Positions 2,609-55,752 of a stretch of DNA of 64,000 nucleotides are shown here, in pieces (within the stretch, counting starts at the first letter, position 1; each line of letters opens with the position of its first letter). The position numbers were made by a program, and so were the translations under genes. The notes below the pieces were generated by a model. It did not search any database. It saw nothing but the letters and a program-made list of their open reading frames with translations, and was not told the DNA's origin. The stretch is from a virus. The stretch covers positions 32,001-96,000 of IMG/VR virus record IMGVR_UViG_3300046453_000063. One strand, written 5' to 3'.

Positions 2609-2630
2609 TAATAAAAATAATATTTTATCA
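2609..2630. repeat. 8-6-8 palindromic site
   Basis: TAATAAAA-ATAATA-TTTTATCA immediately after a stop codon. Confidence 0.6.
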
Positions 2631-2647
2631 AGAAAGGATGTGTATGC

Positions 2648-2854
2648 TTGAATAAATTTATTGTTAAAGGAACCATAATTGAACAAAATGAACGATGGTA
2701 TATTAAAGATGAGAACAACAACCTAGAGAACTCTTCAGATTTATTGGAAGGAATTGATAATGCAATGTATCACCGAAACGATAAATATCAATTACAAGAT
2801 GGAGACTATATTGAAATCGTTGTTAATTATAAAAAGAAAGCAGAATTACAATGA
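2648..2854 (+). CDS. hypothetical protein
   Basis: AAAGGA RBS, TTG start. Confidence 0.65.
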   Translation: MNKFIVKGTIIEQNERWYIKDENNNLENSSDLLEGIDNAMYHRNDKYQLQDGDYIEIVVNYKKKAELQ

Positions 2855-2879
2855 AACAGATAGATTAAAATACTAGGAG

Positions 2880-5069
2880 ATGACGCATACGCAAGTTACA
2901 AAGAGAGATGGAACAGTAGTTGAATTTGATAAGCAGAAGATTGTAAATGCCATTTTGAAGGCTATGGGAAGAACTGAAAAGGGTATTGATGAAGAAGTTG
3001 CTGAGAATGTAGCAGAAAAGACCATACATAAATTATTGGGGAAAAAGAATCTCGATATTGAATGCATTCAAGACAATGTAATTGATTCTTTATTACTCAG
3101 TAAACGAAAAGACGTAGCTAAGGAATATATTGCTTACAGAGAAGTCAGAAGTCTAAAACGAAGAGAAAGAAGTAGCCTCGACAAGAAAGTTCAGGGGCTT
3201 CTTGATTTAACTAATACAGAAGTAATGAGCGAGAATTCCAACAAGGACAGTCAAACAATCCCTACTCAAAGAGATTTATTGGCTGGAATTATGGCTAAAG
3301 ACTTTGCACAAGCGTATATGATTCCTAAGCAAGTAGTAGAAGCTCATAATAATGGTGACATCCATCAACACGATCAAGATTATACACCTTATTTCCCCTC
3401 ATTTAATTGTATGTTGATTGATTTAAGAGAAATGCTTGAGAATGGTTTTAAATTGGGTAATGCTCAAATTGAAACACCAAAATCAATTACAACTGCTGCG
3501 GCTGTAACGGCACAGATTATTGCTCAAGTATCAAGTCATATCTATGGTGGTAATACAATCAACGAGATTGACAAAATTCTTGCACCTTATGTGACATGTT
3601 CGTTCATCAAGCATTTTAAAACTGGCATGGAGTGGCTGTGTAAAGCAGATAATTCCCATATTAACACTTTAGATATTTATATCGGGAACAAGGAGTTATC
3701 AAACCAGTTTCCAAGATGTTATGACTATGCAATCAAACTAACGCAAAAAGAGACTTTGGACGCTTTTCAATCATTAGAATATGAGATAAATACGTTGGTT
3801 TCAGCAAATGGACAAACGCCTTTTTCTACCTTTGGCTTCGGCAGAGGAACAACGTGGGAAGAACGTCAAATTCAAATAGCAATTCTAAATAATCGCATCA
3901 GAGGATTAGGGAAAGAAGGGAAAAGTCCTGTATTCCCAAAACTTATTTTCGCCCTTGAAGAAGGAGTAAATGTCAACCCAGAAGATCCGAACTATGATAT
4001 TAAAAAATTAGCAATAAAATGCAGTACGTTACGTATGTATCCCGATATAATCTCTGTACCAAAAGTTAAAGAGGTTACTGGTTCTTTTAAATTCCCAATG
4101 AGTTGCAGAAGTTTTGTGAGTAAATATATTGAAGATGAAAAAGAATTACACGATGGAAGGTTTAATATGGGAGTAACAACAATCAATCTTCCTCGATTAG
4201 CCATTAAAGCAAAGGGATCAGAAGAGAAATTCTATGTGTTATTGGATGAAATGCTAGAAGTATGCAAAGAAGCACTTATGTATAGAATTGAGCGCTTAAA
4301 AGGAGTAAAAGCTAAAGTTGCTCCTATCTTGTATATGGAAGGTGCAACAGGTCACAGACTCCAAGCAGAAGATACAGTTGATCATTTATTGACTAATGGA
4401 AGATCAAGTATTTCTTTGGGATACATAGGAATTCATGAAACAATACTATCATTATTTGGGAGTCACATTTTTGATGATACTGTTTTAAGACAAAAGGGAT
4501 TGAATATTGTTAAATATCTAAATCAAAAAACAGAGGAGTGGAAAACTGAAACTGGATATGGATTTAGTACATATTCCAGCCCCGCCGAGAGCCTTTGCTA
4601 TCGCTTTTGTAAATTAGACGAAGGACAATTTGGCTTAATACAAGGAATTACAGATAAAGGCTATTACACAAATTCATTTCACTTAGATGTTAATAAAAAA
4701 GCTACACCATTTGAAAAAATAGAATTTGAAAAGGACTACCCGCAATATGCTAACGGGGGATTTATTACATATTGTGAATTTGATTCTTTGGTAAAAAACC
4801 CCGATGCACTAGAAGCAGTATGGGATTTTGCATATAAAAATGTCCCTTACTTCGGAACAAACACCCCGATTGACAAGTGTTTATCTTGCGGGTTCGAAGG
4901 AGAATTCGAAGCAACTGTTTCTGGATTTAAGTGTCCTAATTGTGGGAATGGAGATCCAAAAACAACATCAGTAATCAGACGGTGCTGCGGATATTTGTCT
5001 GAGCCTTCACAGAGACCATTTAACAAAGGTAAACAGCATGAGGTCATCTCAAGAATTAAACATAGTTAG
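2880..5069 (+). CDS. nrdD: anaerobic (class III) ribonucleoside-triphosphate reductase
   Basis: N-terminal ATP cone (VTKRDG), ENSNKD, PMSCRS, Zn CxxC pairs, glycyl-radical motif RRCCGYL. Confidence 0.97.
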   Translation: MTHTQVTKRDGTVVEFDKQKIVNAILKAMGRTEKGIDEEVAENVAEKTIHKLLGKKNLDIECIQDNVIDSLLLSKRKDVAKEYIAYREVRSLKRRERSSLDKKVQGLLDLTNTEVMSENSNKDSQTIPTQRDLLAGIMAKDFAQAYMIPKQVVEAHNNGDIHQHDQDYTPYFPSFNCMLIDLREMLENGFKLGNAQIETPKSITTAAAVTAQIIAQVSSHIYGGNTINEIDKILAPYVTCSFIKHFKTGMEWLCKADNSHINTLDIYIGNKELSNQFPRCYDYAIKLTQKETLDAFQSLEYEINTLVSANGQTPFSTFGFGRGTTWEERQIQIAILNNRIRGLGKEGKSPVFPKLIFALEEGVNVNPEDPNYDIKKLAIKCSTLRMYPDIISVPKVKEVTGSFKFPMSCRSFVSKYIEDEKELHDGRFNMGVTTINLPRLAIKAKGSEEKFYVLLDEMLEVCKEALMYRIERLKGVKAKVAPILYMEGATGHRLQAEDTVDHLLTNGRSSISLGYIGIHETILSLFGSHIFDDTVLRQKGLNIVKYLNQKTEEWKTETGYGFSTYSSPAESLCYRFCKLDEGQFGLIQGITDKGYYTNSFHLDVNKKATPFEKIEFEKDYPQYANGGFITYCEFDSLVKNPDALEAVWDFAYKNVPYFGTNTPIDKCLSCGFEGEFEATVSGFKCPNCGNGDPKTTSVIRRCCGYLSEPSQRPFNKGKQHEVISRIKHS

Positions 5070-5081
5070 GACTACACAATA

Positions 5082-5591
5082 ATGAATATTGCAGATTATA
5101 AACGTTTTGATGTAATCAATGGCCCTGGGATGAGACATTCCATCTTCGTTTCGGGGTGTTCACATCATTCCTGTGAAGGATGCTTTAACGCTGTTTCGTG
5201 GAATTTCAACTATGGGGAAATATATGATCAAGATTTTGAAGACTCCGTAATCAAAGATTTAAATATAGATTATGTAAAACTTTCCGGTGTCTCGATTCTT
5301 GGAGGTGAGCCTTTTGATAATGCAGAAGGATTGCTACCTTTGGTTCATCGCATAAAAAACGAATGCATTCATAATAATATATGGATTTGGTCTGGGTATA
5401 TATTTGAAGAGATATGTGAAGATGACATGATGAAAAAATTGTTAACATACTGTGATGTGCTAGTTGATGGAAGATTCATCATAGAGCAACGGGATTTGAA
5501 GCTCAAGTGGAAAGGATCACGAAACCAGAGGATTTTAAATGTGCAAGAAAGCTTAAGATGTGGGAAGGCAATTCTTCTGCCTTTAACATAA
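5082..5591 (+). CDS. nrdG: class III RNR activase (radical SAM)
   Basis: [30 protein letters not shown]; follows nrdD. Confidence 0.95.
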
Positions 5592-5620
5592 ATAAATATA
5601 CATACAAAGGAGATGTTGGC

Positions 5621-8083
5621 TTGACACAAGTATTTATAACAGAGGATTTTGCAAAGGAAATTGAACAGAAATATCCGCAACCACTAACAGAGCTTGGGGA
5701 GTTTGTGTATTATCGCACATATTCTCGTTGGTTATCTGATAATGACAGACGAGAGAAATGGATTGAGACATGTCGAAGAACAGTAAATTACAATATGGGA
5801 TTGGCTGTAGATCACTATAAAAACATTGGACTCAAACCAAATCTTAAAGAAATGAAAAAAGAAGCTAAGAAATTCTTTGAAAATATGTACCTTACTAAGC
5901 AATTTCCTTCCGGGAGAACAATGTGGGTTGGTGGAGCAAATCAGGCATTAAATGAAAAATTTGTTCTTGGGAACTTTAATTGTTCATTCTTGAATATTAG
6001 TAAATGGGATGATCTTGGTGACTTATTCTACCTGCTTATGGTTGGTACTGGAGTTGGATTTAAATGCACTAAGAAAATGGCGAAAAGTTTGGCTCCGATT
6101 CGGATTAACACAACTCTTTTGCATTCCGAATATAAGCCAGTTCCCGTTTTACAACGACTAGAAAAAACAAAAGTTACATTCTTTGATAATGGGTTTGCTA
6201 AGATTTATGTTGGTGACTCCAAAGAAGGATGGGTAGATGCTCTTAGACAATATTTTAACATTCTTACGAGTACAGAATACGAAGAAATTCACACAGTAAA
6301 AGTTAGTTATAACTCAGTTAGACCAAAAGGAGAACGACTTAAAACTTTTGGCGGTACAGCATCCGGTTATGAACCTCTCAAGGAAATGTTTGATGGAATT
6401 AATAACACGCTGAAAAACACCATTGATAAAAATCTTGCTCCAATTGAGATTATCAAAGAAGGATACTATAGTAAAAATAATAATAACAAAAAACATGCAC
6501 CGATTTATGGTCAAGTTCGTCCGATTCATATTCTCGACATTGGTAACCTTATTGGCGCAAATGTGGTAATCGGAGGAGTTAGAAGAACCGCTGAAATATT
6601 CCTGTTTGATCATGATGATTATGAATCCATGTTTGCAAAATTTGGAATGAATGGTATTTGGGGAGACGAGGGATTTGCTAAACTTGAAAAAGTCAAAAAC
6701 AAGCTGATCGAAAACAATATCCCCATTCCATCATTTTTCGAAGAGCTTTCTATTAAACATTATTATGTGTATGATTCTGAAAACAAAGTGAAGATTGGAG
6801 ACTTCACTTCTGCGGATGAAGCAAGTGGTTTTGCTAAAGAAATTGGTCACGAGAACTACTTCCCTTTCCCTTGCAATGAAACTAGGGCATTACACCATAG
6901 ACGAATGAGCAACAATTCAATTGGATTTACGTCTAAACCAACACGCCCATTCCTTAACTTTGTATATGAGATGATGCAAATGGAAGGCGAACCTGGATTT
7001 GTAAATCTTGAAGAAGCAGCTCGTCGCGTACTAAAACAATTGCGCGTATTAAATCCAACCAGAGAACACTTAGAGTATATTATGGCTTTAATTGGACTAA
7101 ATCCTTGTGTCGAAATCATACTTTTTACTTACAATGTCTGCAATCTCACTACGGTCAATGTAAGAGCTTTTGTATCGGAAGTCGGTGGTAAGTATGTACT
7201 TGATACTGAAGGGCTGTTGGAAGCGCAACGACTGTCTGCTCGCGTTGGTCTTCGTATGACTCTTGCAAAACTAGAGCTTGAGCATTGGGACGCAACGCAA
7301 AAGCGTGACAGATTGCTTGGCACATCCTTGACGGCCTGGAAGGACGCAACTGCGCTACTTGATTACACGTCAGAACAGGAAGAAGAGCTTATGGAGTTGT
7401 TGGGCAACGCTTCAAGAGACGAAGCAGACTTATATGCCAAAGAAATGCGTGTAAATGCACCGCTACTTGTTACTGCTGTTAAGCCAGAAGGAACATTGTC
7501 TCAAGTGGCAGGAGGAGTTTCTAGTGGTTTACATTGGTCTCATTCTCCTTATTATATTAGACGAATTCGCATTAACTCGGCAGATCCATTGGCTCAAGTA
7601 GCCTTGAAATTGGGATGGAATATCAATCCTGAAGTTGGTACTGCTGGAGATACATATGAAGAGAAAATGAAGAATGCACGAACATGGGTTATTGATTTCC
7701 CGATTGAGTCTGGAGCAAAAGAAACAAAAGAGGACGTATCTGCCAAGAGACAACTTGAGACATATTTTAGCTTTCAGAATAAATATACTGAACATAACTC
7801 AAGCAATACAATTACGGTCAGACCAGAAGAATGGGCGGAAGTAGAAGAAATTATCTTTAACAATTGGGATAATTTCGTAGGGGTATCCTTCCTTCAATTA
7901 AACGGAGGAACATACCAGCTCGCCCCTTATGAAGCAATCACAAAGGAACAATTTGTAGAAATGAAATCAAAAATGAAGCCATTTGATGTAAATGTTCTTT
8001 ACGATGTTGAAAAGACAGAAACCGAAGCAGATGAGGAAAATCTAGGCAACTGTGAAGTTGGTGGCGCATGTCCAATTAGATAA
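5621..8083 (+). CDS. nrdJ: adenosylcobalamin-dependent (class II) ribonucleotide reductase
   Basis: [32 protein letters not shown]-terminal [10 protein letters not shown]; AAGGAG then TTG 5621. Confidence 0.93.
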
Positions 8084-8972: not shown

Positions 8973-9005
8973 AAATAACCATAATAAGGGAGAAATTGAC
9001 CAAAA

Positions 9006-9473
9006 ATGACAGACATGATAAAACAAGCATTTCATGAAGAAATTAAGGTAAAAAAACTCAATGAACTAGCGGTTATTCCAGCATATCAAAGCGATGAGGC
9101 GGCAGGATTTGACTTCCATGTTGTAATTGAGGGCGAATCCATTGTTCTTGAACCAGGGAAGCGAGTGTTGCTTGGAACTGGATTGGCATTTCAAATTCCA
9201 AAAGGAAAAGAAATGCAATTACGTCCTCGTAGTGGCCTAGCATACAAGCATGGGATCACCGTTTTGAATAGTCCCGCAACAATTGATAGTGATTTTCGAG
9301 GGGAAGTTAAAGTGCTTCTCATCAACCACGGGCAAGAATCATTTACTATTAAACATGGTGAACGTATTGCTCAAGGGGTCATTGCTAATGTTCCACCAGT
9401 TAAACTTGTTGAAGTTGACGAGCTAGATGAAACAGAACGGGGATCTGGCGGGTTTGGTCATACGGGCAAGTAG
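9006..9473 (+). CDS. dut: trimeric dUTPase
   Basis: AAGFDF, PRSGLA, TIDSDFRGE, ERIAQ, RGSGGFGHTG. Confidence 0.97.
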   Translation: MTDMIKQAFHEEIKVKKLNELAVIPAYQSDEAAGFDFHVVIEGESIVLEPGKRVLLGTGLAFQIPKGKEMQLRPRSGLAYKHGITVLNSPATIDSDFRGEVKVLLINHGQESFTIKHGERIAQGVIANVPPVKLVEVDELDETERGSGGFGHTGK

Positions 9474-9488
9474 CCTATAGATATATCT

Positions 9489-9514
9489 GGCGGTGGTTAA
9501 TCCATCGCCTTTTA
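9489..9514 (+). terminator. intrinsic terminator between dut and thyA
   Basis: GGCGGTGG-TTAAT-CCATCGCC followed by TTTT. Confidence 0.6.
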
Positions 9515-9540
9515 ACTTACAAATTAAGGGAGGAAATAAA

Positions 9541-10404
9541 TTGAATAAACTAGATGAACAATACATTCAGCTTTGCAAAGACATTCTTGAAAATGGAGTA
9601 AGAAAAGAGGATAGAACTGGGACGGGAACACTTTCAGTGTTTGGACGAGAAATCAGAATTAATCTTCAGGAAGGATTCCCTTTGCTTACAACCAAGAAAA
9701 TTCATCTGAAATCAGTGATTCATGAACTGCTATGGTTTTTAAAGGGAGAAACCAATATAAAATACCTTAAAGATAATGGGGTTACAATATGGGATGCTTG
9801 GGCGGATAGACATGGAAACCTGGGTCCAGTGTATGGATCTCAGTGGGTTAATTGGGAATCAAAATATGAAGATACTGATTGGGGATATGATGGAGAGGAT
9901 GAATATTCGTACTCCATAGTATCATCAGAATATACAAATCAGATTCAGGATGTTGTCAATTCAATCAAAAACAATCCAGATTCCCGTAGACACCTTGTTT
10001 CGGCTTGGAATGTTGGAGAAATTAAAAATATGAAATTACCGCCGTGTCACTATGCCTTTCAATTTTATGTAGCAAATAATAAACTATCTTGCAAATTTAA
10101 TATGCGCAGCACAGATGTATTCTTGGGATTACCATTCAATATTGCAAGTTACGCGCTATTAACTATGATGATTGCTCAAGTATGTGATTTAGAGCTTGGG
10201 GATTTAATTTATTCAGGTGGAGATGTACACATTTACACTAATCACCTCGATCAAGTCAACCTTCAATTAACAAGAGAACCAAAAGAACTGCCTAAGATGT
10301 TTATTAATTCAAATATTAAAGATATATTTTCATTTAGGTATGAAGATTTTATCATTGATGGCTATGATCCACATCCACCAATCAAGGGAACCGTTGCTGT
10401 ATGA
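9541..10404 (+). CDS. thyA: thymidylate synthase
   Basis: [36 protein letters not shown]; GGGAGG then TTG 9541. Confidence 0.97.
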
Positions 10405-10907
10405 CCTACCCATTAACAATCATTGTAGCTATGGATCGTAATGGACTTATCGGTTCAAATAGTCAACTCCCTTGGTATATTCCAGCAGACTTAAATTTCT
10501 TTAAGTCAACTACCATGTACAATAATGTAGTAATGGGTCGATCAACTTTTGAATCAATTGACAAACCACTTCCCAAACGAACAAATATCATCCTAACTTC
10601 GCAAAAAGATTACCCTGTTCCACCTGATGGATATGTTTATGACCACTTAGATGATGTATTGGTTCATTCATTTGTTGATGAACTCAGATCGACCTACATT
10701 ATTGGCGGATCGTCAATTTACTCACAATTCCTTCCTCATGCTGAGAATATGATCATAACTCACATTGATGCAGAGTTTGAAGGAGACGTTTATTTCCCCA
10801 ACTACGATAAGTCAGAATGGGAATGCATCCATGAAAGAGCCATTCCTGAAGGTTTAGACACTGATTACAACTTAACAATAAAACGTTACAAAAGATTTAA
10901 TAAATAA
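10401..10907 (+). CDS. dfrA: dihydrofolate reductase
   Basis: [35 protein letters not shown]. Confidence 0.95.
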
Positions 10908-10939
10908 ATATATACAAATTAATTAAACTATGTTATGAT
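10895..10939 (+). promoter_or_regulatory. AT-rich repeat fused to an extended -10 promoter
   Basis: ATTTAATAAATAAATATATACA, with TATACA-N17-TATGAT and TG at the extended position. Confidence 0.65.
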
Positions 10940-10940
10940 G

Positions 10941-10979
10941 AGTACAGGTTAAGAAACACGCCTGTACTTTATTTTATTT
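10941..10979 (+). terminator. terminator after dfr
   Basis: AGTACAGG...CCTGTACT followed by a T-rich tract. Confidence 0.55.
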
Positions 10980-10996
10980 CTAGGGAGACGATACAT

Positions 10997-11269
10997 ATTA
11001 AAAAAGAATCTAAAGAAAAACAGAAAATCAACTCAGATGTTCAAGCAATCCTCTCACTTTGTTGGGGAGAAAATGATGAACGCAGATGCACAAGTTTTAT
11101 TGTTGATGGTAAGCATGAGTACACAACAAGAGATGGTTTAACGTACAAACCAACAAACAATACATATGAAGAACTCGTTAAGTATCAAGAAGATGAAAAC
11201 AGCAGACCAATCAAGCTTTATCGTAACGGAGATTATGTAAATATCACTGGAGGAGTGATTATTAAATGA
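10997..11269 (+). CDS. hypothetical protein (ATT start; not in ORF track)
   Basis: GGGAG RBS, ATT, 90 open codons ending in an ATGA overlap with the next gene. Confidence 0.6.
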   Translation: MKKESKEKQKINSDVQAILSLCWGENDERRCTSFIVDGKHEYTTRDGLTYKPTNNTYEELVKYQEDENSRPIKLYRNGDYVNITGGVIIK

Positions 11270-11442
11270 TTAAATATTTTCGGAGACTGAAGACCAAAGT
11301 TATTATTCGTATCTTTTGGATGAACATTTTTGATTCTGTAAGAAATAATCATCGTGATATGGTTTATGAAATTGCATACGAAATGGGCAGAGCTAAACAG
11401 CGTAATGATGTTGAACCTTTGGAGGGAACTTATGAAGATTAG
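11266..11442 (+). CDS. small hypothetical protein
   Basis: GGAGGAG RBS; MIKYFRRLK..., 58 aa. Confidence 0.55.
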   Translation: MIKYFRRLKTKVIIRIFWMNIFDSVRNNHRDMVYEIAYEMGRAKQRNDVEPLEGTYED

Positions 11443-11797
11443 TCAAAATGTAAGGTATAAATATATGGAGATTTGTCCTAATAGTACAATGAAATGCGAT
11501 ACATATGAAGAAATTGATTACAAAATTAAACGAGCTGTTGATTTGGGCAGAGTTGTTTATACATATCCTTGCAGAGTTATTCAGTATTATAATTTGAGGT
11601 TAACAGTTGAAATCGGTGATAAAGAAAACACCGTTATTGATATGGAAAAGAATGACGACTTTTATCGAGTAGATGAAGATCGGAAATTTGCACACGAATG
11701 CAAGCATTATAATATGGCTATTTGTGATTTTGATTATCAAGATAATAAAGCGTCAAAAGAAGAGATTATGAATATTCTAGGGAAAAAATTCTTTTAA
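11432..11797 (+). CDS. hypothetical protein
   Basis: GGAGG RBS, ATG 11432. Confidence 0.7.
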   Translation: MKISQNVRYKYMEICPNSTMKCDTYEEIDYKIKRAVDLGRVVYTYPCRVIQYYNLRLTVEIGDKENTVIDMEKNDDFYRVDEDRKFAHECKHYNMAICDFDYQDNKASKEEIMNILGKKFF

Positions 11798-11813
11798 TAA
11801 AAAGGAGATAAAA

Positions 11814-12398
11814 ATGACACCAGAACGGGTTAAACATTTCAAAAGACTTCATATCCAAAAGCATCAAGATTGTGATGCATACCTTACCGTTGGGGATTTC
11901 AATTCTTTATTAGCTGATCTAGAAGAGGCGCAACAACAAATTAAAGATCAGGACGAACTACAGGAAACCACGCTAGGACTCCTTATGGAAGCACAGGAAG
12001 ATTATGAAGAGACGAGAAAACAATTGGCAGAGGCACAACAACGGGCAGAGATTGCTTATCTGGCATACGAAGGATTACAGAATGATTGTGTAAGTCGTGG
12101 GGAGTACGAGTCAATGCTTAACAAAAATACGGTGCTGGCTAAGGCGATTCGAGAGGCAAAACAGACAATATCAAACCAACAAAGCAAGATTGACGCAGCA
12201 TTGTCCTGGACGTGGAACTGTGGTGAGGCAAATATGCTTGAGGTTATCGCAGCGTTGAATGGCAAAGAACAAACCGTACTCACATTCCCAAACTGTCCTG
12301 TATGCAATAGTAATAACACGCTGTCTCACCCAACTAAAACAGGAACGTGGTTGTGCGTTCCATGCAACAAAGTCTTTGAGGAAGGAGAGACCACGTGA
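11814..12398 (+). CDS. coiled-coil protein with C-terminal zinc ribbon
   Basis: AAGGAG RBS; CPVC...CVPC. Confidence 0.75.
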   Translation: MTPERVKHFKRLHIQKHQDCDAYLTVGDFNSLLADLEEAQQQIKDQDELQETTLGLLMEAQEDYEETRKQLAEAQQRAEIAYLAYEGLQNDCVSRGEYESMLNKNTVLAKAIREAKQTISNQQSKIDAALSWTWNCGEANMLEVIAALNGKEQTVLTFPNCPVCNSNNTLSHPTKTGTWLCVPCNKVFEEGETT

Positions 12399-12646
12399 CA
12401 TTTGAAAACGTAAAGCACAACATCCCAGAGATAATGCGCAGACACCCATTCCAAAAACAACAAAGCGAACATTTTGATTTAGAGGATATTCTGGATGATT
12501 ATGAACTATGTAAGAAAATTTGCTATTTGTACGACATTGGAATAACAATTAAAATGATAAAATCTGTCTACTCTGATATTGAAAACGAGAGAAGCGAAGA
12601 TAATCGAACAGATAATGACTCGATTGAAAACCGAGATTACTATTAA
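12395..12646 (+). CDS. hypothetical protein
   Basis: AAGGAG RBS, GTGA overlap. Confidence 0.65.
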   Translation: MTFENVKHNIPEIMRRHPFQKQQSEHFDLEDILDDYELCKKICYLYDIGITIKMIKSVYSDIENERSEDNRTDNDSIENRDYY

Positions 12647-12659
12647 TTTAATTCTGGGG

Positions 12660-12726
12660 TTTAAAAAAATGGCTAAAAATCAACGTTATTTTAAGCTAAA
12701 AACTTCATGAAAGGCGAGTTTTATCA
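12660..12726. repeat. composite site (diverged accessory palindrome + 8-6-8 site)
   Basis: TCATGAAA-GGCGAG-TTTTATCA at 12705-12726, preceded by TTAAAAAAA...GCTAAAA...TTATTTTAAGC. Confidence 0.6.
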
Positions 12727-12750
12727 AAACATGGAAATGGGAGTGAAAAT

Positions 12751-12912
12751 ATGGCTATTGTTGCAGTATTATTGATTCAAATCTCTTTGTTGATTATTAG
12801 TATTATTGGTTACTTGGGTAAACTCAAAAAATATAAATATGAAAGAATTATTCCATTTATGATAATTTTATTAAGTCTTGTTTTGACATTTATAATGTTC
12901 AAATGGCTTTAA
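12751..12912 (+). CDS. small two-TM membrane protein
   Basis: GGGAG RBS; MAIVAVLLIQISLLIISIIGY...IIPFMIILLSLVLTFIMFKWL. Confidence 0.65.
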   Translation: MAIVAVLLIQISLLIISIIGYLGKLKKYKYERIIPFMIILLSLVLTFIMFKWL

Positions 12913-12948
12913 TTAATTGACAATTAAATATGAAAGGAGACTTACTAA

Positions 12949-13158
12949 ATGCTACTCAGCATAATTTTCGGATGGTTAGCTCCATGTTATCTATACATAG
13001 GAATGTTCACGCTGCTAATTGGAATGATCATCGATGGTATTTCAGAATTTGGGTGGAAGCAAACAGCACAATTTATTCTTGCTTGGCCTGTGATTTGGTT
13101 CGTGGTTGTATTGCTTAAACATGATATGTATAAAAATAAGATGGGAAGCAAGAAATGA
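12949..13158 (+). CDS. small membrane protein
   Basis: AAAGGAG RBS; two hydrophobic segments. Confidence 0.65.
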   Translation: MLLSIIFGWLAPCYLYIGMFTLLIGMIIDGISEFGWKQTAQFILAWPVIWFVVVLLKHDMYKNKMGSKK

Positions 13159-13334
13159 CAACTAAAGTATGCAAAAGACACCAACTTGAACCAGCATTTA
13201 TTTATGGTCAATGCATTGGATGTGAAATTGAGTATTACCAGAAAAAATTAAATGAGAAGGATGAAGAGCTTGAGATGTTAAATAAAGAAATGAAGGAGAT
13301 AAGAGAGAAATATGAAACCGTTGAAAGAAAATGA
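13155..13334 (+). CDS. small Cys/His protein
   Basis: ATGA overlap; MTTKVCKRH...CIGC. Confidence 0.55.
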   Translation: MTTKVCKRHQLEPAFIYGQCIGCEIEYYQKKLNEKDEELEMLNKEMKEIREKYETVERK

Positions 13335-13509
13335 TCTTCCGATTGAGGATATCGACCTTCATGAGATCAGAATGAATGAGGTTATTTTGAAAAGAAGTAA
13401 CGATGATTTGATAAGTATGCTGTCATATATGAGTGGATATGCCGGGAATAGTGAATTTTTTGATGAGGCTTTTCAGTCGGCATTAGTTTATATAGGAGAT
13501 GAGAATTAA
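13312..13509 (+). CDS. hypothetical protein
   Basis: Co-oriented, tightly packed ORF. Confidence 0.55.
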   Translation: MKPLKENDLPIEDIDLHEIRMNEVILKRSNDDLISMLSYMSGYAGNSEFFDEAFQSALVYIGDEN

Positions 13510-13884
13510 ATGACAAAAGAAAAAATCCTAAAGATGAACGACTCTGAACTCGATTATTCAATTGCAACAGAATTCTTGAAATGGTATATAACAAAAGGTG
13601 AGTTTAGCGGTAATGAATACTGGAACGATGAGGATGATTATTCTCCATACTCTGTAAATAATTTCTCTCCTTCTAAAAATATTGAGACTGCGTGGACGAC
13701 TGTTGTAGATAAACTAAGTAAGCAAGGAATGAGAATTGTTCTAGAGGACTATATGAATGGAGAGTGGCTGTGCTCTTTGAAGAATATATACGGAGGATAT
13801 ATCATTGGTGTACATAAATTTGATTCGGCAACAAGAGCAATATGCAAAATTGCTTTAATGACATTAATTGATGAATTCTCATGA
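13510..13884 (+). CDS. phage ABA-sandwich-like protein
   Basis: ELDYSIA, FSPSKNIETAW, ATRAICKIAL. Confidence 0.65.
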   Translation: MTKEKILKMNDSELDYSIATEFLKWYITKGEFSGNEYWNDEDDYSPYSVNNFSPSKNIETAWTTVVDKLSKQGMRIVLEDYMNGEWLCSLKNIYGGYIIGVHKFDSATRAICKIALMTLIDEFS

Positions 13885-13900
13885 AAACTATGTTTTACTT
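13879..13900. repeat. 8-6-8 palindromic site
   Basis: TCATGAAA-ACTATG-TTTTACTT overlapping a TGA stop. Confidence 0.55.
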
Positions 13901-13920
13901 AGAAAAATTATTCAAAATTG

Positions 13921-13965
13921 ATTTAATAAATAAATATATACATAATTAATGAAACGTGATAAAAT
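13921..13965 (+). promoter_or_regulatory. AT-rich repeat fused to an extended -10 promoter of the sigma factor
   Basis: 22 bp identical to 10895-10916; TATACA-N17-TAAAAT with TG. Confidence 0.7.
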
Positions 13966-13990
13966 ATCCTCAAAGGAGAAATCACTACAA

Positions 13991-14623
13991 ATGAACATTG
14001 AAAACATCAGATATGATTCTTCCCTAAATAATGAGCAACTAATTAAACTTGGGAAGGAGACGAATTCTAAGGAAATCCGTGACAAAGTTTGCGAGAATAA
14101 TATTCCGTTAGTCATTAAGCTGGCAAATAAATGGTGTGCTCATAAGAATAAGAAAGATCTAGACGATCTCAGATCGATTGGTCTCTATGGTTTAGTCAAA
14201 GCTTACGATACATATGATGTTAACAATGGAGCTAAGTTCTCAACATATGCAGCAAGAGTAGTTTGGGGTGAATTTTGTAGTCAATATAAATACGAGAGAA
14301 TGAAATGTAGAAGTGGATATGATGTAATTAGCATTGATGAGGGAACTTATCGACTAAACGAGTCAACAAAAGAGCTAACTATTGCAGATATCATTCCAGA
14401 TGAATACTCACTAAATGATTTCGAAGAAGTTGAAAGTAAGATGTATATTGAAAACTTCCTTGACTCATCATTCACAGAAAATGAAAAATACATTGCACGC
14501 AGACACTTTATTGATGGATTCACCATTGCTGAAATCGGCAGAGAAGGAAAGGTTTCTCGTCAAGCAGTTCATCAAACTCATAAACGTAATCTTAAAAAGT
14601 TATCCTTGGCAATTGGCTGTTAG
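13991..14623 (+). CDS. phage sigma-70 family sigma factor (sporulation-sigma-like)
   Basis: Region 2 DLRSIGLYGLVKAYDTYD...KFSTYA; region 4 HTH TIAEIG...SRQAVHQ; AAGGAG then ATG 13991. Confidence 0.9.
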   Translation: MNIENIRYDSSLNNEQLIKLGKETNSKEIRDKVCENNIPLVIKLANKWCAHKNKKDLDDLRSIGLYGLVKAYDTYDVNNGAKFSTYAARVVWGEFCSQYKYERMKCRSGYDVISIDEGTYRLNESTKELTIADIIPDEYSLNDFEEVESKMYIENFLDSSFTENEKYIARRHFIDGFTIAEIGREGKVSRQAVHQTHKRNLKKLSLAIGC

Positions 14624-14634
14624 GGGGAATATTC

Positions 14635-14796
14635 ATAAACAAATTCACAATCACAGCAGCAATAACGCTTTGGTTAATCATCATATACATATGCTCAATT
14701 TTAAATGATTCGCCCAAAAGTAAAGGATTGCTATGCATAACATTGGCGTTCATATTTATGACTATAGACTCATACATAAAGTTACACAAGAAATGA
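14635..14796 (+). CDS. small two-TM protein (ATA start)
   Basis: AGGGGG RBS, ATA, INKFTITAAITLWLIIIYICSIL...LLCITLAFIFMTI. Confidence 0.5.
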   Translation: MNKFTITAAITLWLIIIYICSILNDSPKSKGLLCITLAFIFMTIDSYIKLHKK

Positions 14797-14834
14797 CAGC
14801 ATGAGAAGTAATTAACTCTTAGGAGGAATTACGC

Positions 14835-15071
14835 TTGATAATAAAAATAATAAATGCAAAAGATGGTCATTGGTACAAAGATGCAGTAGGATTTAATTTT
14901 GATGCTGAACTAAAAGTTAATCCTAAATTCCAAACAAGATACTATCAACTGCTAAACACAGAAAGGAATCAATCTTACTTTGTAGATGATGAGTTTGAAT
15001 TATTGTTTTTATTGTCTGGATGTAAGGGTGTCGAATATTGGGATGCTATGAGAACATGGGAGGAGGAATAA
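14835..15071 (+). CDS. hypothetical protein
   Basis: AGGAGG RBS, TTG. Confidence 0.7.
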   Translation: MIIKIINAKDGHWYKDAVGFNFDAELKVNPKFQTRYYQLLNTERNQSYFVDDEFELLFLLSGCKGVEYWDAMRTWEEE

Positions 15072-15073
15072 AG

Positions 15074-15220
15074 ATGGAGCAAGAATGTACTAATGGATGT
15101 GGAAAATTGGAAAGTGTGCGTGGTCATATTGAGACAAATGACGGACGTACATATTTTAAAGTGGATATTTTATATTGTCCAGATTGCCTATGTATAGAAT
15201 ATGTTGATGCAAATTTATAG
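15074..15220 (+). CDS. small zinc-ribbon protein
   Basis: GGAGG RBS; CTNGC...CPDC. Confidence 0.6.
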   Translation: MEQECTNGCGKLESVRGHIETNDGRTYFKVDILYCPDCLCIEYVDANL

Positions 15221-15222
15221 GA

Positions 15223-15244
15223 CGATCAAAGGCTGCTTTTATCA
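15223..15244. repeat. 8-6-8 palindromic site
   Basis: CGATCAAA-GGCTGC-TTTTATCA between a stop codon and the next RBS. Confidence 0.6.
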
Positions 15245-15265
15245 AAAATTATGAGGAGAGATAAA

Positions 15266-15550
15266 ATGATTGGATATCTAAATAGTAAATCGGAGAAGCA
15301 AATTGAGACGATGCTGAACAATTTTGAGAAACTAAATAAACACTATCTTCAAGAAGTTACCATTGTTAACGAATTTGCAGGTCATTGCTTTGACATTGGA
15401 CAAAAGGTACTACTCGTAGACATTATTGATGCTGAAATTCCACTATATAAGGCAGTTGATTTAGAACATAAGCAAAAATGTGTAATCCAAGAAGATGAGT
15501 TTGAAGTTGGATTTAACACAACTTTTAAGGAGGTTGAACCATGGAACTAA
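15266..15550 (+). CDS. hypothetical protein
   Basis: GAGGAG RBS, ATG 15266. Confidence 0.7.
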   Translation: MIGYLNSKSEKQIETMLNNFEKLNKHYLQEVTIVNEFAGHCFDIGQKVLLVDIIDAEIPLYKAVDLEHKQKCVIQEDEFEVGFNTTFKEVEPWN

Positions 15551-15747
15551 CCAATAGTCAAAAAACAACGGTGTTTCAAACTATCGAAGACAAACTTTTT
15601 ACACTGCAATATAAAATTTGGGACTATGAAAAACTTGAACAAACTAAAGAAATGGTTTTTCATATCAATAATCTTAAGAAAGACCAAACAGAGCTTCGTG
15701 AAGTAAGAGATATGCTACAAAGAGAGATTGAACTTAGCACAAAATAA
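15541..15747 (+). CDS. hypothetical protein
   Basis: AAGGAGG RBS. Confidence 0.7.
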   Translation: MELTNSQKTTVFQTIEDKLFTLQYKIWDYEKLEQTKEMVFHINNLKKDQTELREVRDMLQREIELSTK

Positions 15748-15771
15748 ATATTAGGAGGGAATTATAAATAT

Positions 15772-16068
15772 ATGACAATGATCTATAAAGTTGAACAAAT
15801 TGATTATATGGGTTATCCAGCCTACGAAAAATATTTTAGTGGCAAGAATAATGCCGAACAGGACTTTGAAGATCGACTACTACATATTAAGAAAACAGAA
15901 AACATTGTTGACCCAGAAGAACATTATAAAGAGAACGAAATTTTACTAGGAGAAAACAATAAAATTAAGACTGAAACTGTTTGGTATTGGGAAAGAACGA
16001 GTTATGAATATGAAGAATATGATAGGTATCCCATTGAACTAAACATTAGAGAGATTGAATTGAATTAA
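15772..16068 (+). CDS. hypothetical protein
   Basis: AGGAGG RBS. Confidence 0.7.
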   Translation: MTMIYKVEQIDYMGYPAYEKYFSGKNNAEQDFEDRLLHIKKTENIVDPEEHYKENEILLGENNKIKTETVWYWERTSYEYEEYDRYPIELNIREIELN

Positions 16069-16221
16069 ATAAAGGGAGTTGAGTAAATGACAATATATAA
16101 AGGCGATTACTATTGTGAAAAGTGCCGACCAGAGCATTATGTTACTTTGTCCTATGAAACACCTACGTGTCCCTGCTGTGGATCGAAAATGACTGAATTT
16201 TTCACGGACGATTAAAAATGA

Positions 16222-16290
16222 TCATCTAAAAAACCGCTAAAACATTGGGTTTTTTAGATGACAAAACTTTATAAAATGAGACTTTCATTA
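16222..16290. repeat. composite site (accessory palindrome + 8-6-8 site)
   Basis: TCATCTAAAAAA[CCGCTAAAACATTGG]GTTTTTTAGATGA then TTATAAAA-TGAGAC-TTTCATTA (16269-16290). Confidence 0.7.
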
Positions 16291-16309
16291 AAATAAAAGG
16301 AGATAAGAT

Positions 16310-16630
16310 ATGGATAATGATAAATTAACAACAGAACATGAATTGTTTATTTCGATTGGATTAAAAGTTCCTATTAAACCTTCTGTATTTAGTAAAGAGA
16401 TTGACTCAATGATATTTGAAAATATTGGATACGTACAAAGCTGGGGAGTACACACTAAACACGAATACATAGAGTTGTGTAGTTCATTACAAGATAGACT
16501 GAATAAAGTAACAGACGCTCTAACTTGGATTAGAAAGAATTATGAAGAAGATTGGACATATGAAGAGGGCATAGGTGAGGCCGTATCTGGTATCATTCTA
16601 TCACTGGAAAATGCCTTAGATATTACCTAA
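16310..16630 (+). CDS. hypothetical protein
   Basis: AAGGAG RBS. Confidence 0.7.
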   Translation: MDNDKLTTEHELFISIGLKVPIKPSVFSKEIDSMIFENIGYVQSWGVHTKHEYIELCSSLQDRLNKVTDALTWIRKNYEEDWTYEEGIGEAVSGIILSLENALDIT

Positions 16631-16830
16631 TGAAAACTGAAATTTATCAAGAAAAAAGGGAGGTAGTCTCAATGGAAGTTGGTTATACATTAAAGGGAAA
16701 ATGGTTGGGAGAAGACTGGCGAAGCAATATCTTCACCGATGCAGAGGATTGTAGTTCTCTTTATTGGAAACTTATTAATGACCGAGATTATGAATCTCTC
16801 AAAGAACATATTGTGTATATGCATTTTTAA
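16630..16830 (+). CDS. hypothetical protein
   Basis: TAATG overlap; alternative start 16672 after GGGAGG. Confidence 0.6.
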   Translation: MKTEIYQEKREVVSMEVGYTLKGKWLGEDWRSNIFTDAEDCSSLYWKLINDRDYESLKEHIVYMHF

Positions 16831-16852
16831 GAAATTAAGTATGACTAAATTC

Positions 16853-16874
16853 AGATAAAACTTTACTTTTATGA
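16853..16874. repeat. 8-6-8 palindromic site
   Basis: AGATAAAA-CTTTAC-TTTTATGA, intergenic. Confidence 0.65.
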
Positions 16875-16898
16875 ATAAATATACGAGGGAGAATAAAT

Positions 16899-17129
16899 AT
16901 GAAAAATTATGAAGAATATGAAAAATACTTTAAAAATGGAGAGCTAGACATTCTAAGTAAATACACCTCGATTTACAAAAAGACTAAAAATAGGAGAATT
17001 AAAAAGAAAAATTTCAAGAAACTTAAAAAAGACCTCTTCTTACTTATGGATAAAATTTTAACAATAAAAATTCAGGAACAGTTTGATTATTTCGTCAAGG
17101 TTGAAGATTCAATTAAATTTAACAAATAA
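16899..17129 (+). CDS. basic hypothetical protein
   Basis: GAGGGAG RBS; KKTKNRRIKKK. Confidence 0.65.
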   Translation: MKNYEEYEKYFKNGELDILSKYTSIYKKTKNRRIKKKNFKKLKKDLFLLMDKILTIKIQEQFDYFVKVEDSIKFNK

Positions 17130-17143
17130 GGAGATGATTTAGA

Positions 17144-17371
17144 ATGAAAATATTCTTATTAATTGAACTCGATATTCTTTGCGAATCAACTAGGGTACAT
17201 AGCGCATATTTTAATATCAAAGACGCAGAAACAAAGAAGATAGGACTAGAAGAACTATGCGAAGCAAAAGAAGCTACGTACATTGATTATATGCATTCAG
17301 ACGATGAAGAAGATTCTCCAGATTCAGACTTTGATTATGTTTACTTAATTCAAGAAATTGAAGTTCATTAG
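17144..17371 (+). CDS. acidic hypothetical protein
   Basis: AAGGAG RBS. Confidence 0.65.
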   Translation: MKIFLLIELDILCESTRVHSAYFNIKDAETKKIGLEELCEAKEATYIDYMHSDDEEDSPDSDFDYVYLIQEIEVH

Positions 17372-17615
17372 TGGTGGTTTAAAATAAACTCAATTTTATG
17401 AAGAAGAGGTGAATTGTATTGGAACGATTCTTTTTAAAAACAAATGAAATTACAAAAGAAACATATTTATTAGAAGTAGATGGAGATTTTTATGGTCATG
17501 ACATGCAGAACATGGTAATTGCTAAATTTTATAATCAAGATTATGCAAAAAGAGTATGCTTTTTATTAAATGAGGATTTGTGAGTTGTTAATAAAATATA
17601 GTGAGAGGTGATTTT

Positions 17616-18113: not shown

Positions 18114-18173
18114 ATATACGTAATTAAACGATACAATGAAAATCATAAATTTTATTAAGAAAATGGTGACTAT

Positions 18174-18393: not shown

Positions 18394-18415
18394 AATCGAA
18401 ATCCAGATTTTATTA
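18394..18415. repeat. 8-6-8 palindromic site
   Basis: AATCGAAA-TCCAGA-TTTTATTA. Confidence 0.6.
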
Positions 18416-18808: not shown

Positions 18809-18827
18809 TAAATCGTTAGTTTTATCA
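18806..18827. repeat. 8-6-8 palindromic site
   Basis: TGATAAAT-CGTTAG-TTTTATCA. Confidence 0.65.
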
Positions 18828-18846: not shown

Positions 18847-19002
18847 ATGTGTCATTGTAAATATTGTGATGAATCAGAAGAAGAGAACGGATTTTGGGGA
18901 GATGTTTATTTCTATGTGGAAGAGAATAAATGCGATAAAGAAACAGCTATGAAAGCCATAGAAACGATATACGAGGAATTTTGTAAAAGAACCATTTCAT
19001 GA
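18847..19002 (+). CDS. small hypothetical protein (single-gene cassette)
   Basis: AAGGAG RBS; MCHCKYC..., 51 aa; stop lies in the right arm of the next site. Confidence 0.6.
   Translation: MCHCKYCDESEEENGFWGDVYFYVEENKCDKETAMKAIETIYEEFCKRTIS
18981..19002. repeat. 8-6-8 palindromic site
   Basis: TTGTAAAA-GAACCA-TTTCATGA. Confidence 0.6.
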
Positions 19003-54077: not shown

Positions 54078-54142
54078 TCAAAAACCCGCATAAACATTGG
54101 ACTTTTTAAGCGTGATTTCCTCATGAAATGATAGATTTATCA
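54078..54142. repeat. composite site with inverted accessory core
   Basis: TCAAAAAC[CCGCATAAACATTGG]ACTTTTTAAG then TCATGAAA-TGATAG-ATTTATCA. Confidence 0.75.
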
Positions 54143-54422: not shown

Positions 54423-54432
54423 TACTTATCTC

Positions 54433-55515
54433 CTATCTTTTCTTTTTACCGAACGATCCAGACGAACTTCCTTCTGGTTGTTCCGACTCATCTTTATCAA
54501 ATGTTGCATTAACATCAAATATCTTATTCTTTTCTTCTTCAAAGTCACGCAAATCATAGATCTGAGTTGTAGAGATATCATTATGATGAGCTACATATTT
54601 AGAAACAAGATGCATAGGAACTCCAGATTCAAGCAGATATGTAATACAAGAATTCTTAAAAATATGTACATTGATTCGGCGTTCAAGAATATCGGAAAGG
54701 GTGTTCATACAAAAATCATTTGCCCATGCAGAAGACATTGCTTTGGGTTCATGATCATATTTTGTAGTAAATACATATTCGCTTTCGTATCCTCTTTCAT
54801 CAATCCACTTTTTCCAATGTTTCAGAACTTCTAATTTGATCATATATTCTAGTTTTTTGCCGTCAGTCGAAGCTCCTTTTCCCCTAACAACATGAGACAT
54901 TACATAGTTCTGTCCTTCAACAACTGAATATTCGAGTATTTCAGTTTTAAACTGAATAATCTCTGCTCGTCTAGCACCAACCAGGAAGGCCGTAGCAAGC
55001 CATGCCATACCCAACCAGTTCTTATCACCTTCTAGTACACTCATCATCATGTCGTATTCTTCTTTGGTGACTTTAACCTTTTCATAAACACGATTACGGG
55101 GGATAGAAGGGAGGCCACGAGTAAAGTTTCTGAACATTTTATAGTTAGAATCATCTTCTGCTACAACATTCTCAATATAGTTGCACAAACTTGACACTAC
55201 AGACTTTCGAACGCCGATGGCAGAAGAAGACATCTTTCTGTTATCACGTATATAACTAAGATACCTAATAAAGTCACGCTTTGTAATTTCATAAAACTTC
55301 TTGTTGTTCATTGAGTTGAACATGTACCATCCGAATTGTCTCAATACACTTTTGTACTGTGATTTCGATTGAATACTCAAGTCCTGGACCGAGACGAATT
55401 CTTCTGCAAGGTTGCGATAGTCATCATTCACCTTGAGCCACATTTCTTCAGTTACTTCCTCTAATTTCTTAGCGGGTTCTCGCAACGTATTCTGCTTATT
55501 TACTTTCTTGCTCAT
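54433..55515 (-). CDS. tyrosine recombinase family protein
   Basis: SAM-like core-binding domain; GARRAEI, RGKG, HIFK (HxxK), HHNDISTTQIY. Confidence 0.88.
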   Translation of the reverse strand: MSKKVNKQNTLREPAKKLEEVTEEMWLKVNDDYRNLAEEFVSVQDLSIQSKSQYKSVLRQFGWYMFNSMNNKKFYEITKRDFIRYLSYIRDNRKMSSSAIGVRKSVVSSLCNYIENVVAEDDSNYKMFRNFTRGLPSIPRNRVYEKVKVTKEEYDMMMSVLEGDKNWLGMAWLATAFLVGARRAEIIQFKTEILEYSVVEGQNYVMSHVVRGKGASTDGKKLEYMIKLEVLKHWKKWIDERGYESEYVFTTKYDHEPKAMSSAWANDFCMNTLSDILERRINVHIFKNSCITYLLESGVPMHLVSKYVAHHNDISTTQIYDLRDFEEEKNKIFDVNATFDKDESEQPEGSSSGSFGKKKR

Positions 55516-55527
55516 TGCATCAAATCC

Positions 55528-55710
55528 TTATGTGTTTTTATGGTATATAGAAAAATTAACGATTTTATCTTCTATAATTTTTAACTTAGTTTCATTAAGC
55601 AATCTATCCCCAATTTTCTTTTGCATTTCATAAGACAAAATCTCTTCTTGACTTGCTAAAACAGTAAGTCCTTCTAAAGAATAATAGGGAATAGGAGAAG
55701 TCAGATTCAT
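55528..55710 (-). CDS. small hypothetical protein
   Basis: GGAGG RBS then ATG (MNLTSP). Confidence 0.5.
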   Translation of the reverse strand: MNLTSPIPYYSLEGLTVLASQEEILSYEMQKKIGDRLLNETKLKIIEDKIVNFSIYHKNT

Positions 55711-55730
55711 TAAATCGCCCTCCAAAATGT

Positions 55731-55752
55731 TTATTAAATAACCATTTCATCA
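55731..55752. repeat. 8-6-8 palindromic site
   Basis: TTATTAAA-TAACCA-TTTCATCA overlapping the HNH stop codon. Confidence 0.6.

Follow-up and report, generated by a model that had tools for sequence, protein, structure and literature searches.

Dispersed palindromes with a collinear spacer code at the module borders of an SPbeta-like phage: possible natural sites of in-register cassette exchange

Ever since phage evolution was first described as modular, there has been debate over how unrelated phage modules come to be joined so cleanly, and the joining has been attributed either to rare illegitimate recombination followed by selection or to homologous exchange in short conserved 'linkers'. 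The question is raised again by a 64,000-nucleotide stretch of viral DNA (IMG/VR record IMGVR_UViG_3300046453_000063; the window), in which a palindromic element, here termed the dyad, recurs at gene borders as two inverted arms enclosing a 6-bp spacer. The window spans positions 32001-96000 of one contig, which is 163,994 bp long and has a G+C content of 34%. The source genome, an SPbeta-like phage of ~164 kb as judged from its sequence, encodes homologs of YonO, YonN, YorG, YopP, YopQ and YopR, and no nucleotide-level relatives of it were found in the GenBank phage collection. It is argued below, as a proposition that we regard as evenly balanced, that the dyads are register-specific crossover sites in which the spacer would set the choice of partner, so that cassette exchange of the heterospecific lox/FRT kind would have a counterpart in nature.

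A reading of the window made from its letters and open reading frames (ORFs) alone, the sequence-only reading, had listed 12 copies of the dyad, all of which are present. Scored against a position weight matrix (PWM) built from the exact-core sites of the genome, these copies reach 10.4-28.5 bits, with 10 of the 12 scoring at least 13.5. Three 'weaker variants' that had been proposed at 8947, 17380 and 18134 score 2.4, 0.5 and -10.4 and are not sites; six matches absent from the list were found at 9016, 16628, 20604, 33933, 41784 and 63717. The motif exceeds its expected frequency in shuffled DNA. The exact core, ATRAAA-N6-TTTYAT, was counted nine times in the window, where dinucleotide shuffles give an expectation of 0.37, and TNATNAAA-N6-TTTNATNA with no more than one mismatch occurs 22 times against 3.3 expected on the same basis. 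Over the whole genome the exact core was counted 27 times (0.9 expected from third-order Markov simulations), and 58 sites attain a PWM score of at least 14, for which 0.63 were expected.

Approximately 50 of the 58 sites are intergenic, usually lying on or following a stop codon, and typically terminate 12-24 nt ahead of the next start codon. The arm TGATAA itself provides stop codons. The overlap with a stop codon, with a ribosome-binding site (RBS) just beyond, that had been described for the listed copies is in agreement with this placement. Early regions with many genes are densely populated with sites, the late operon only sparsely. No spacer of the genome is duplicated on either strand, as had been remarked for the copies first listed.

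Alignment of the 58 sites along the direction of local transcription yielded the symmetric consensus (W)YYTNATRAAA-N6-TTTYATNARR(W). The inverted arms and the 6-bp spacer of the 8-6-8 arrangement first proposed are retained, although the arms are 11 bp and not 8 bp in length, and the resulting 11-6-11 geometry conforms to that of tyrosine-recombinase core sites, which the sequence-only reading had invoked (arms within ~9-13 bp, centre within 6-8 bp). Paired arm positions do not covary. At positions 5/18, an R/Y pair, the combinations A-T, G-T, A-C and G-C occur 14, 14, 13 and 12 times respectively, and for every variable arm pair the Watson-Crick count is equal to or under the shuffled expectation. 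Each arm therefore matches the half-site consensus independently, which points to a protein oligomer reading duplex DNA and excludes an RNA hairpin, an intrinsic terminator or an attC-like folded strand. On this pattern of variation the dyad is a double-stranded DNA target with two independent half-sites. The spacers have a G+C content of 44%, above that of the genome, and no self-complementary spacer was present in any genome compared. A sigma-70-type promoter was considered and rejected, since the arm spacing is unlike that of -35/-10 elements and a promoter scan (56 versus 46.9 ± 6.9) showed no enrichment in the dense region. Terminators were likewise not enriched there in a terminator scan.

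A phage contig of 174.5 kb (G001, hereafter the relative) was found by an exact 16-base pattern scan of IMG/VR. It carries 69 dyad sites, which were compared with 64 sites of the window genome. Thirty-nine of the 64 spacers recur unchanged in the relative, without exception on the same strand and in an order that is perfectly collinear, the genomes being circularly permuted; reverse-strand matches numbered zero, and ~1.3 matches per orientation would be expected by chance. A strict diagonal-based orthology test gave five site pairs only, and the whole-genome spacer comparison was used instead. Only 36% of the genome aligns to the relative by blastn, and 120 of its 283 genes have a blastp homolog there, with a median identity of 85% at the amino acid level. 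Of the 39 shared-spacer sites, 27 have no homologous gene on either side, and only three have homologous genes on both. Slots between successive shared spacers measure 225 bp in the window genome versus 1411 bp in the relative, 245 versus 2070 bp and 645 versus 2605 bp. The slot between sites 36940 and 54121, holding distal tail genes, extends over 17.2 kb versus 22.5 kb, with one of its 11 genes homologous, and thus has the look of a host-range module that was replaced whole. This block contains a tape measure protein of 2234 amino acids, proteins of 894 and 853 amino acids and an acyltransferase (37391-38434).

The arms have not been retained to the same degree as the spacers. Same-spacer pairs show an arm identity of 0.74 and random site pairs one of 0.65-0.69, and single arms are often at the random level. 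At site 15223 the left gene is 96% identical and the spacer intact, yet 5 of the 11 positions of the left arm differ. In the fragments of the relative that are syntenic with window positions 8978-18143, homology breaks at dyads. The part of the dyad that has no consensus among sites, the spacer, is the part best conserved between the two phages. Conservation of the spacer while arms and genes change is contrary to the behaviour of a regulator operator, and would be expected if spacer identity decides the exchange partners. The statement of the sequence-only reading that all copies lie at gene boundaries, with none in long genes, holds for most sites and fails for the matches at 9016, 33933, 41784 and 63717, which lie within ORFs. 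Their spacers are not kept in the relative, that of 9016 being one nucleotide off inside a 92%-identical block, and these may be chance or non-functional matches.

Similar borders were found between SPbeta, which carries ~35 copies of the form RTCTRA-ATAAAA-N6-TTTTAT-TYAGAY at similar gene junctions, and phi3T, which carries 31. Twenty-five spacers are common to the two phages and are collinear. As the sequence-only reading anticipated for breakpoints in related phages, the ends of BLAST blocks often lie within a few bases of dyad centres. A breakpoint was present at 12 of 24 gene junctions having a site and at 13 of 162 without one (odds ratio 11.5, Fisher p=2e-6), so that the effect exceeds a mere tendency of breakpoints to fall at gene borders. 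Base-level alignments place the start or stop of homology inside the invariant inner arm, to the left or right of the spacer; such switch points would be compatible with strand exchange at the spacer borders, without being diagnostic of it. Five same-spacer palindromes persist as isolated 18-23-bp islands amid non-homologous DNA.

Two junctions formed in the laboratory also fall within dyads. A total of 16 homologous junctions and one non-homologous junction have been described from SPbeta x phi3Ts hybrids and extrachromosomal DNA in evolved Bacillus subtilis (Dragos et al., bioRxiv 10.1101/2020.05.06.055103), among them junction 7, with '30 bp' of homology, and N1, the sole 'non-homologous' junction (Supplementary Table 1, 10.1101/2020.05.06.055103). 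Chromosomal coordinates were converted to those of SPBc2 by calibration on published block ends (yorY 2170317 = 116130, checked with yotI 2153648 = 132799). Junction 7 maps to SPBc2 69415 and phi3Ts 62446, and N1 to SPBc2 116414 and phi3Ts 107382 (~phi3T 107920). All four positions are dyads, and in each pair the spacers are identical (TGCATA and TATTCC, respectively) and the flanks unrelated. The hybrid CP052843.1 has its crossover in long homology and yields no information on dyad junctions.

The sequence-only reading had regarded the dyads as junctions at which promoterless gene units are inserted or excised. Their role as junctions of gain, loss and replacement is supported both by the relative and by the comparison of SPbeta with phi3T. 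The insertion or excision of integron-like single-gene circles is not: insertion of the integron type would leave two same-spacer sites flanking each cassette, and duplicated spacers are absent from the window genome and from SPbeta and phi3T. Tolerance of mismatched spacers, suggested by analogy with Tn916-type integrases, was also not upheld: spacer identity is conserved between phages, and both laboratory junctions with minimal homology joined same-spacer sites.

The dyad is not confined to these phages. When palindromes of the form hexamer-N(3-9)-hexamer were ranked de novo by enrichment, ATAAAA/ATGAAA-N6 came first or nearly so in the window genome, in the relative and in SPbeta, as well as in Geobacillus virus E3 and Psychrobacillus phage Perkons, and this occurrence in several lineages marks it as an old, conserved feature of the phage group. 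In SPbeta, E3 and Perkons, ATRAAA-N6-TTTYAT ranks first among enriched N6 palindromes, and each of the three encodes homologs of YomM, YopP and YopR. A loose WAAA-N6-TTTW scan of related records gave counts equal to controls. Four spacers of the window phage match SPbeta/phi3T, at approximately chance level and in non-collinear order, indicating that the spacer code is not conserved over that distance.

In the SPbeta literature available for searching, no description of the dyad was found. SPBRE, a dispersed repeat of SPbeta, is the binding site of MrpR/YopR, a master repressor with the fold of a tyrosine recombinase but without recombinase activity (PMC10516654). Sequencing after chromatin affinity purification (ChAP-seq) of MrpR revealed only ten SPBRE peaks and not the ~35 dyads (PMC10516654). 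The motif derived from these ten target promoters, AAAWAATATGTATAT, is 15 bp in length and present in ~10-15 copies that overlap -10 regions. It is unrelated to the dyad, and MrpR peaks occur only at SPBRE; the dyad was rejected as an SPBRE/MrpR operator on these grounds. At ~111022-111051 of SPbeta NC_001884, a yorM ChAP-seq peak has a poor SPBRE match (11/15) and a dyad ~140 bp inside the annotated gene start.

Two further motifs accompany some of the dyads. Approximately ten of the 58 sites have a companion element 41-42 bp upstream that consists of an A-run, a ~15-bp core (CCGCATAAACATTGG-like) and a T-run. The core is sometimes flipped; some copies in the genome are perfect terminator hairpins and others pair poorly. 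The companion at 12663 and site 12705 are kept together in the relative, with diverged flanks. Several dyads sit just upstream of the motif AATAAATATATA, which occurs 15 times in the genome, exclusively on the plus strand (none on the minus strand), with 12-mers at window positions 10903, 13929, 19019, 20591 and 36988. From its sequence context this motif is probably a phage early promoter and/or an operator of the MrpR-like repressor. It resembles the SPBRE/-10 region of SPbeta and is often preceded by TATTTA-N5; TATTTA-N5-TAAATA is enriched in both the window genome and the relative.

On balance, the observations speak for exchange in register, from one genome to another, at sites having the same spacer. 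We infer that a phage-encoded protein, most probably of the tyrosine-recombinase family (YopP-like, or the YomM-like product of 54433-55515), would bind each 11-bp arm with one subunit, the arms being recognised independently, and that strand exchange would occur in the spacer. The asymmetric 6-bp spacer would act as an address, the only productive partners being same-spacer sites at the same position in collinear phages. One exchange between a co-infecting phage and another phage or a prophage would generate two complete chimeric genomes, whereas through two exchanges the phages would trade what lies in one slot, be it as little as one small gene or as much as the 17-kb distal-tail module. 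Deletion or inversion between the ~60 sites of one genome would be prevented by spacers that are unique and non-palindromic. More tentatively, and with slightly less than even confidence, SPbeta-like phages may possess a genome-wide natural scaffold for cassette exchange, in which one tyrosine recombinase would act on ~60 dyads bearing a collinear spacer address code, so that divergent phages lacking homology would recombine only in register, without deletions or inversions.

Several known systems bear comparison with such a scaffold. Heterospecific lox/FRT sites consist of inverted arms and a short asymmetric spacer, and permit exchange only between identical spacers, swapping the intervening DNA unscrambled. 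The putative likeness lies in one arm specificity combined with many mutually incompatible spacers; lox/FRT sets, however, are man-made, have a 13-8-13 structure and usually comprise 2-4 spacer variants, whereas the dyads would offer ~60 natural variants in a conserved collinear series along a phage genome. Xer/dif and pdif sites, of which the latter bracket accessory gene modules, have the same 11-6-11 geometry, AT-rich inner arms and 6-bp centre. They differ in having separate XerC and XerD arms and essentially one centre, whereas every dyad centre differs and the candidate enzymes are phage-encoded; the single consensus shared by both dyad arms implies a homo-oligomer, unlike dif. Integron attC/attI sites likewise delimit gene units downstream of stop codons, with variable accessory content and a tyrosine recombinase invoked, but attC is a folded single strand conserved in structure and poorly in sequence, whereas the dyad is conserved in sequence and its pairing is not selected. 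The dyads also lack duplicated spacers around cassettes and an attI/Pc platform. Stoperators of cluster A mycobacteriophages such as L5 are dozens of repressor-type sites in short intergenic gaps, and resemble the dyads in this genome-wide distribution. They are, however, 13-bp asymmetric sequences oriented with transcription and without a variable centre, and we know of no reported link between them and mosaic borders. The early promoter and stem-loop elements of T4-type phages (PeSLs) are, like the dyads, short conserved intergenic motifs that flank variable small ORFs at the indel and replacement borders of related phages (PMC2839356, PMC4122927). Exchange at PeSLs has been ascribed to homologous recombination of their near-identical copies, whereas the dyad is neither a sigma-70-type promoter nor a hairpin, has a position-specific conserved spacer and only in the ~10 cases above a terminator-like neighbour. 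SPBRE is also a dispersed intergenic repeat of the same phage group bound by a protein of tyrosine-recombinase fold (PMC10516654), but differs in its motif and in its overlap with -10 regions.

Three recombinase-fold proteins are encoded by the phage, YomM-like, YopP-like and YopR-like, and the candidate proteins are weakly Xer-like (E about 1e-3 to 1e-4). The YopR-like protein is the homolog of MrpR, which in SPbeta is non-catalytic (PMC10516654). No published function was found for YomM or YopP in a literature search. The sequence-only reading had assigned recombination to the product of 54433-55515, a YomM-like protein that is 60-63% identical to the YomM of SPbeta, phi3T and Goe phages including Goe12 and keeps Arg I, Lys, His, His and Tyr. 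This assignment is at most tentative: Lys replaces Arg II in all orthologs examined, identity to the protein of the relative is 64%, the gene occupies a slot flanked by sites 54121 and 55731 that, on the sequence comparison, is itself exchanged between phages, and there is a rival candidate. The rival, a YopP-like protein encoded outside the window (genome 114515-115654), is 92% identical in the relative; it has a full-length Pfam Phage_integrase domain and, by motif alignment, the complete motif set R, K, H-x-x-R, H, Y. As putative enzyme or binder, the YopP-like protein is slightly favoured over the YomM-like protein.

Several observations weigh against crossover by a site-specific recombinase. 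The loss of Arg II in the YomM-like proteins is one, and SPbeta YopP too has Lys at this position; the YomM-like protein has moreover diverged between the window phage and the relative despite the same half-site profiles in both. Spacer uniqueness within the genome equals the chance expectation and is not significant alone, and avoidance of duplicate or self-complementary spacers was indistinguishable from chance in tests of low power. At the junction level, 13 of 25 SPbeta/phi3T breakpoints lie away from sites. SPBRE motifs also lie near some breakpoints, less tightly (4 of 15 within 40 bp), which suggests that conserved regulatory motifs generally tend toward mosaic borders. Exact matches of at least 17 bp outside long homology number 16, five of which are dyads, and the probability that both laboratory junctions hit dyads by chance is hence ~0.08, which is suggestive but not proof. 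Lastly, a short-homology crossover in an identical core of 18-23 bp predicts the same comparative patterns.

Short homology is the basis of the strongest alternative, which we consider possible though on the whole doubtful. Here the dyads would be boundary or regulatory elements (a roadblock of 'stoperator' type, or an insulator) for a non-catalytic recombinase-fold protein, and exchange would be ordinary recombination in the 18-23-bp core, by host RecA or the Sak4-like annealing protein YorG, with selection for gene-border recombinants as proposed for T4-type PeSLs. In MrpR this phage group has put a tyrosine-recombinase fold to use solely as a DNA-binding repressor (PMC10516654), and PeSLs are documented regulatory repeats that mediate modular shuffling (PMC2839356, PMC4122927). 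The lack of Arg II in YomM and SPbeta YopP, the YorG homolog of the genome (64% identity), the concentration of sites in early regions, their regulatory surroundings of terminator-like neighbours and promoter-like AATAAATATATA motifs downstream, and the presence of SPBRE near breakpoints are all in keeping with it. An unconstrained operator spacer, however, should be the least conserved part and is instead the most conserved, and arm mismatches would hurt homologous exchange as much as spacer mismatches, yet only the arms vary. Homologous exchange over 18-30 bp is very inefficient, yet two of ~17 laboratory junctions are of this kind, and MrpR was seen by ChAP-seq at its ten SPBRE peaks and not at dyads. 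Of the two readings, short-homology recombination at protein-bound boundary elements is judged the less probable, and tyrosine-recombinase catalysis is held midway between doubt and acceptance.

It is improbable that the dyads are mere operators of a host or phage transcription factor, with mosaic borders and shared spacers arising as a by-product of descent and gene-boundary position. Dimeric regulators typically have symmetric half-sites that do not covary, and the sites lie just upstream of an RBS or promoter, but such operators would not account for the enrichment of breakpoints over site-free gene junctions, for the spacers retained at 27 positions having both neighbour genes replaced, or for laboratory junctions exactly at sites. 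With shared genes at a median amino acid identity of 85%, six neutral bases would rarely remain intact at 61% of sites. Folding of the dyads as single strands, whether as RNA hairpins (a terminator, a processing or stabilising element, or a translational operator) or as attC-like single-stranded DNA, is very improbable indeed. The sites lie between stop codon and RBS on the mRNA, and some SPbeta copies are annotated as stem_loop in NC_001884, but there is no compensatory variation, A-C being as common as G-U on the transcribed strand; the 8-bp all-A/U stem is weak, it is sequence that is conserved and not pairing, and site orientation is symmetric in plus- and minus-strand gene blocks. A chance pattern in a genome of 34% G+C, where stop codons in the arms bias such words to intergenic DNA, can be dismissed, given that the counts exceed dinucleotide and third-order Markov nulls by a factor of ~25 to 90 and that the dyad is conserved in four other phage lineages.

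Table 1. Dyads, companion elements and the candidate recombinase-family gene of the window (window coordinates; shared, same spacer in the relative G001).
Feature	Position	Strand	Spacer	PWM score	Remarks
Dyad	2609-2630		ATAATA	17.7	Intergenic; same spacer at collinear position in G001
Dyad-like, doubtful	9016-9037			24.1	Within 5' end of ORF 9006-9473
Companion (A-run, core, T-run; terminator-like)	12663-12692	+			~42 bp upstream of site 12705
Dyad	12705-12726		GGCGAG	27.8	Spacer shared; flanking genes non-homologous
Dyad	13879-13900		ACTATG	17.4	Spacer shared; homology breakpoint 12 bp from centre
Dyad	15223-15244		GGCTGC	13.5	Spacer shared
Companion (A-run, core, T-run)	16228-16255	+			Upstream of site 16269
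Dyad	16269-16290		TGAGAC	24.2	Spacer shared; flanks on both sides unrelated
Dyad	16628-16649		ACTGAA	20.5	Spacer shared; slot to next site 225 bp vs 1411 bp in G001
Dyad	16853-16874		CTTTAC	19.9	Spacer shared
Weak dyad	18394-18415		TCCAGA	10.4	Spacer not found in G001
Weak dyad	18806-18827		CGTTAG	12.4	Spacer not found in G001
Dyad	18981-19002		GAACCA	21.4	Spacer shared; flanks on both sides homologous
Dyad	20604-20625		GAGGTG	16.2	Spacer shared
Dyad-like, doubtful	33933-33954			21.6	In ORF; spacer not shared
Companion (A-run, core, T-run), core flipped	36899-36928	-			Upstream of site 36940
Dyad	36940-36961		TTCCTA	28.5	Spacer shared; left border of distal-tail slot
Dyad-like, doubtful	41784-41805			16.8	In ORF of 853 amino acids; spacer not shared
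Companion (A-run, core, T-run)	54080-54107	+			Upstream of site 54121
Dyad	54121-54142		TGATAG	24.3	Spacer shared; right border of tail slot and one border of YomM slot
YomM-like tyrosine-recombinase-family gene, candidate binder/enzyme	54433-55515	-			Pfam Phage_integrase and SAM-like N-terminal domain
Dyad	55731-55752		TAACCA	18.1	Spacer shared; other border of YomM slot
Dyad-like, doubtful	63717-63738			19.7	In ORF; spacer not shared

Other genes of the phage were recorded alongside the dyads. An anaerobic glycyl-radical ribonucleotide reductase of the NrdD type (2880-5069) lies beside a second, B12-dependent, class II-like ribonucleotide reductase (5507-8083); in their place SPbeta has a class Ib enzyme, NrdEF. 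A phage-encoded sigma-70-family factor with regions 2 and 4 (13949-14623) is found among the small early genes, and a gene for an actin-like (ALP/ParM-type) protein (19129-20088) directly follows site 18981. The DnaE-type DNA polymerase III alpha subunit is split into ORFs 21365-22846 (PHP and N-terminal part) and 23856-26444 (the rest). Between them an ORF of 242 amino acids (23086-23814) bears a NUMOD3 homing-endonuclease motif, and on this basis the insertion is likely to be an intron or a free-standing homing endonuclease. The window also contains a serine integrase gene (28145-29905) and a thymidylate synthase gene. An HNH endonuclease gene of 379 amino acids (55750-56889) lies in the tail operon directly past site 55731, adjoining the YomM slot. 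Outside the window, the YopQ-like protein (genome 146010-147341), encoded beside the MrpR-like repressor gene, matches Pfam DndB (DNA-sulfur-modification associated, ParB-like) just over threshold.

In the dyad, an element with the architecture of a recombinase site lies at mosaic borders and carries a position-specific code that outlasts the surrounding genes. As SPbeta and phi3T are tractable phages of B. subtilis that carry dyads and recombine in the laboratory, the question is directly testable. If the dyads are indeed recombined by an enzyme, they would be the 'linkers' of modular evolution theory in enzymatic form, and would furnish dozens of naturally occurring, mutually orthogonal sites for a single recombinase. 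Functions would be provided for the orphan recombinase-like genes yomM and yopP, and it would become clear why accessory, anti-defence and tail modules turn over so rapidly in SPbeta-like prophages. In-register, site-specific 'sex' between divergent phages would then constitute a new organising principle of viral genomes.

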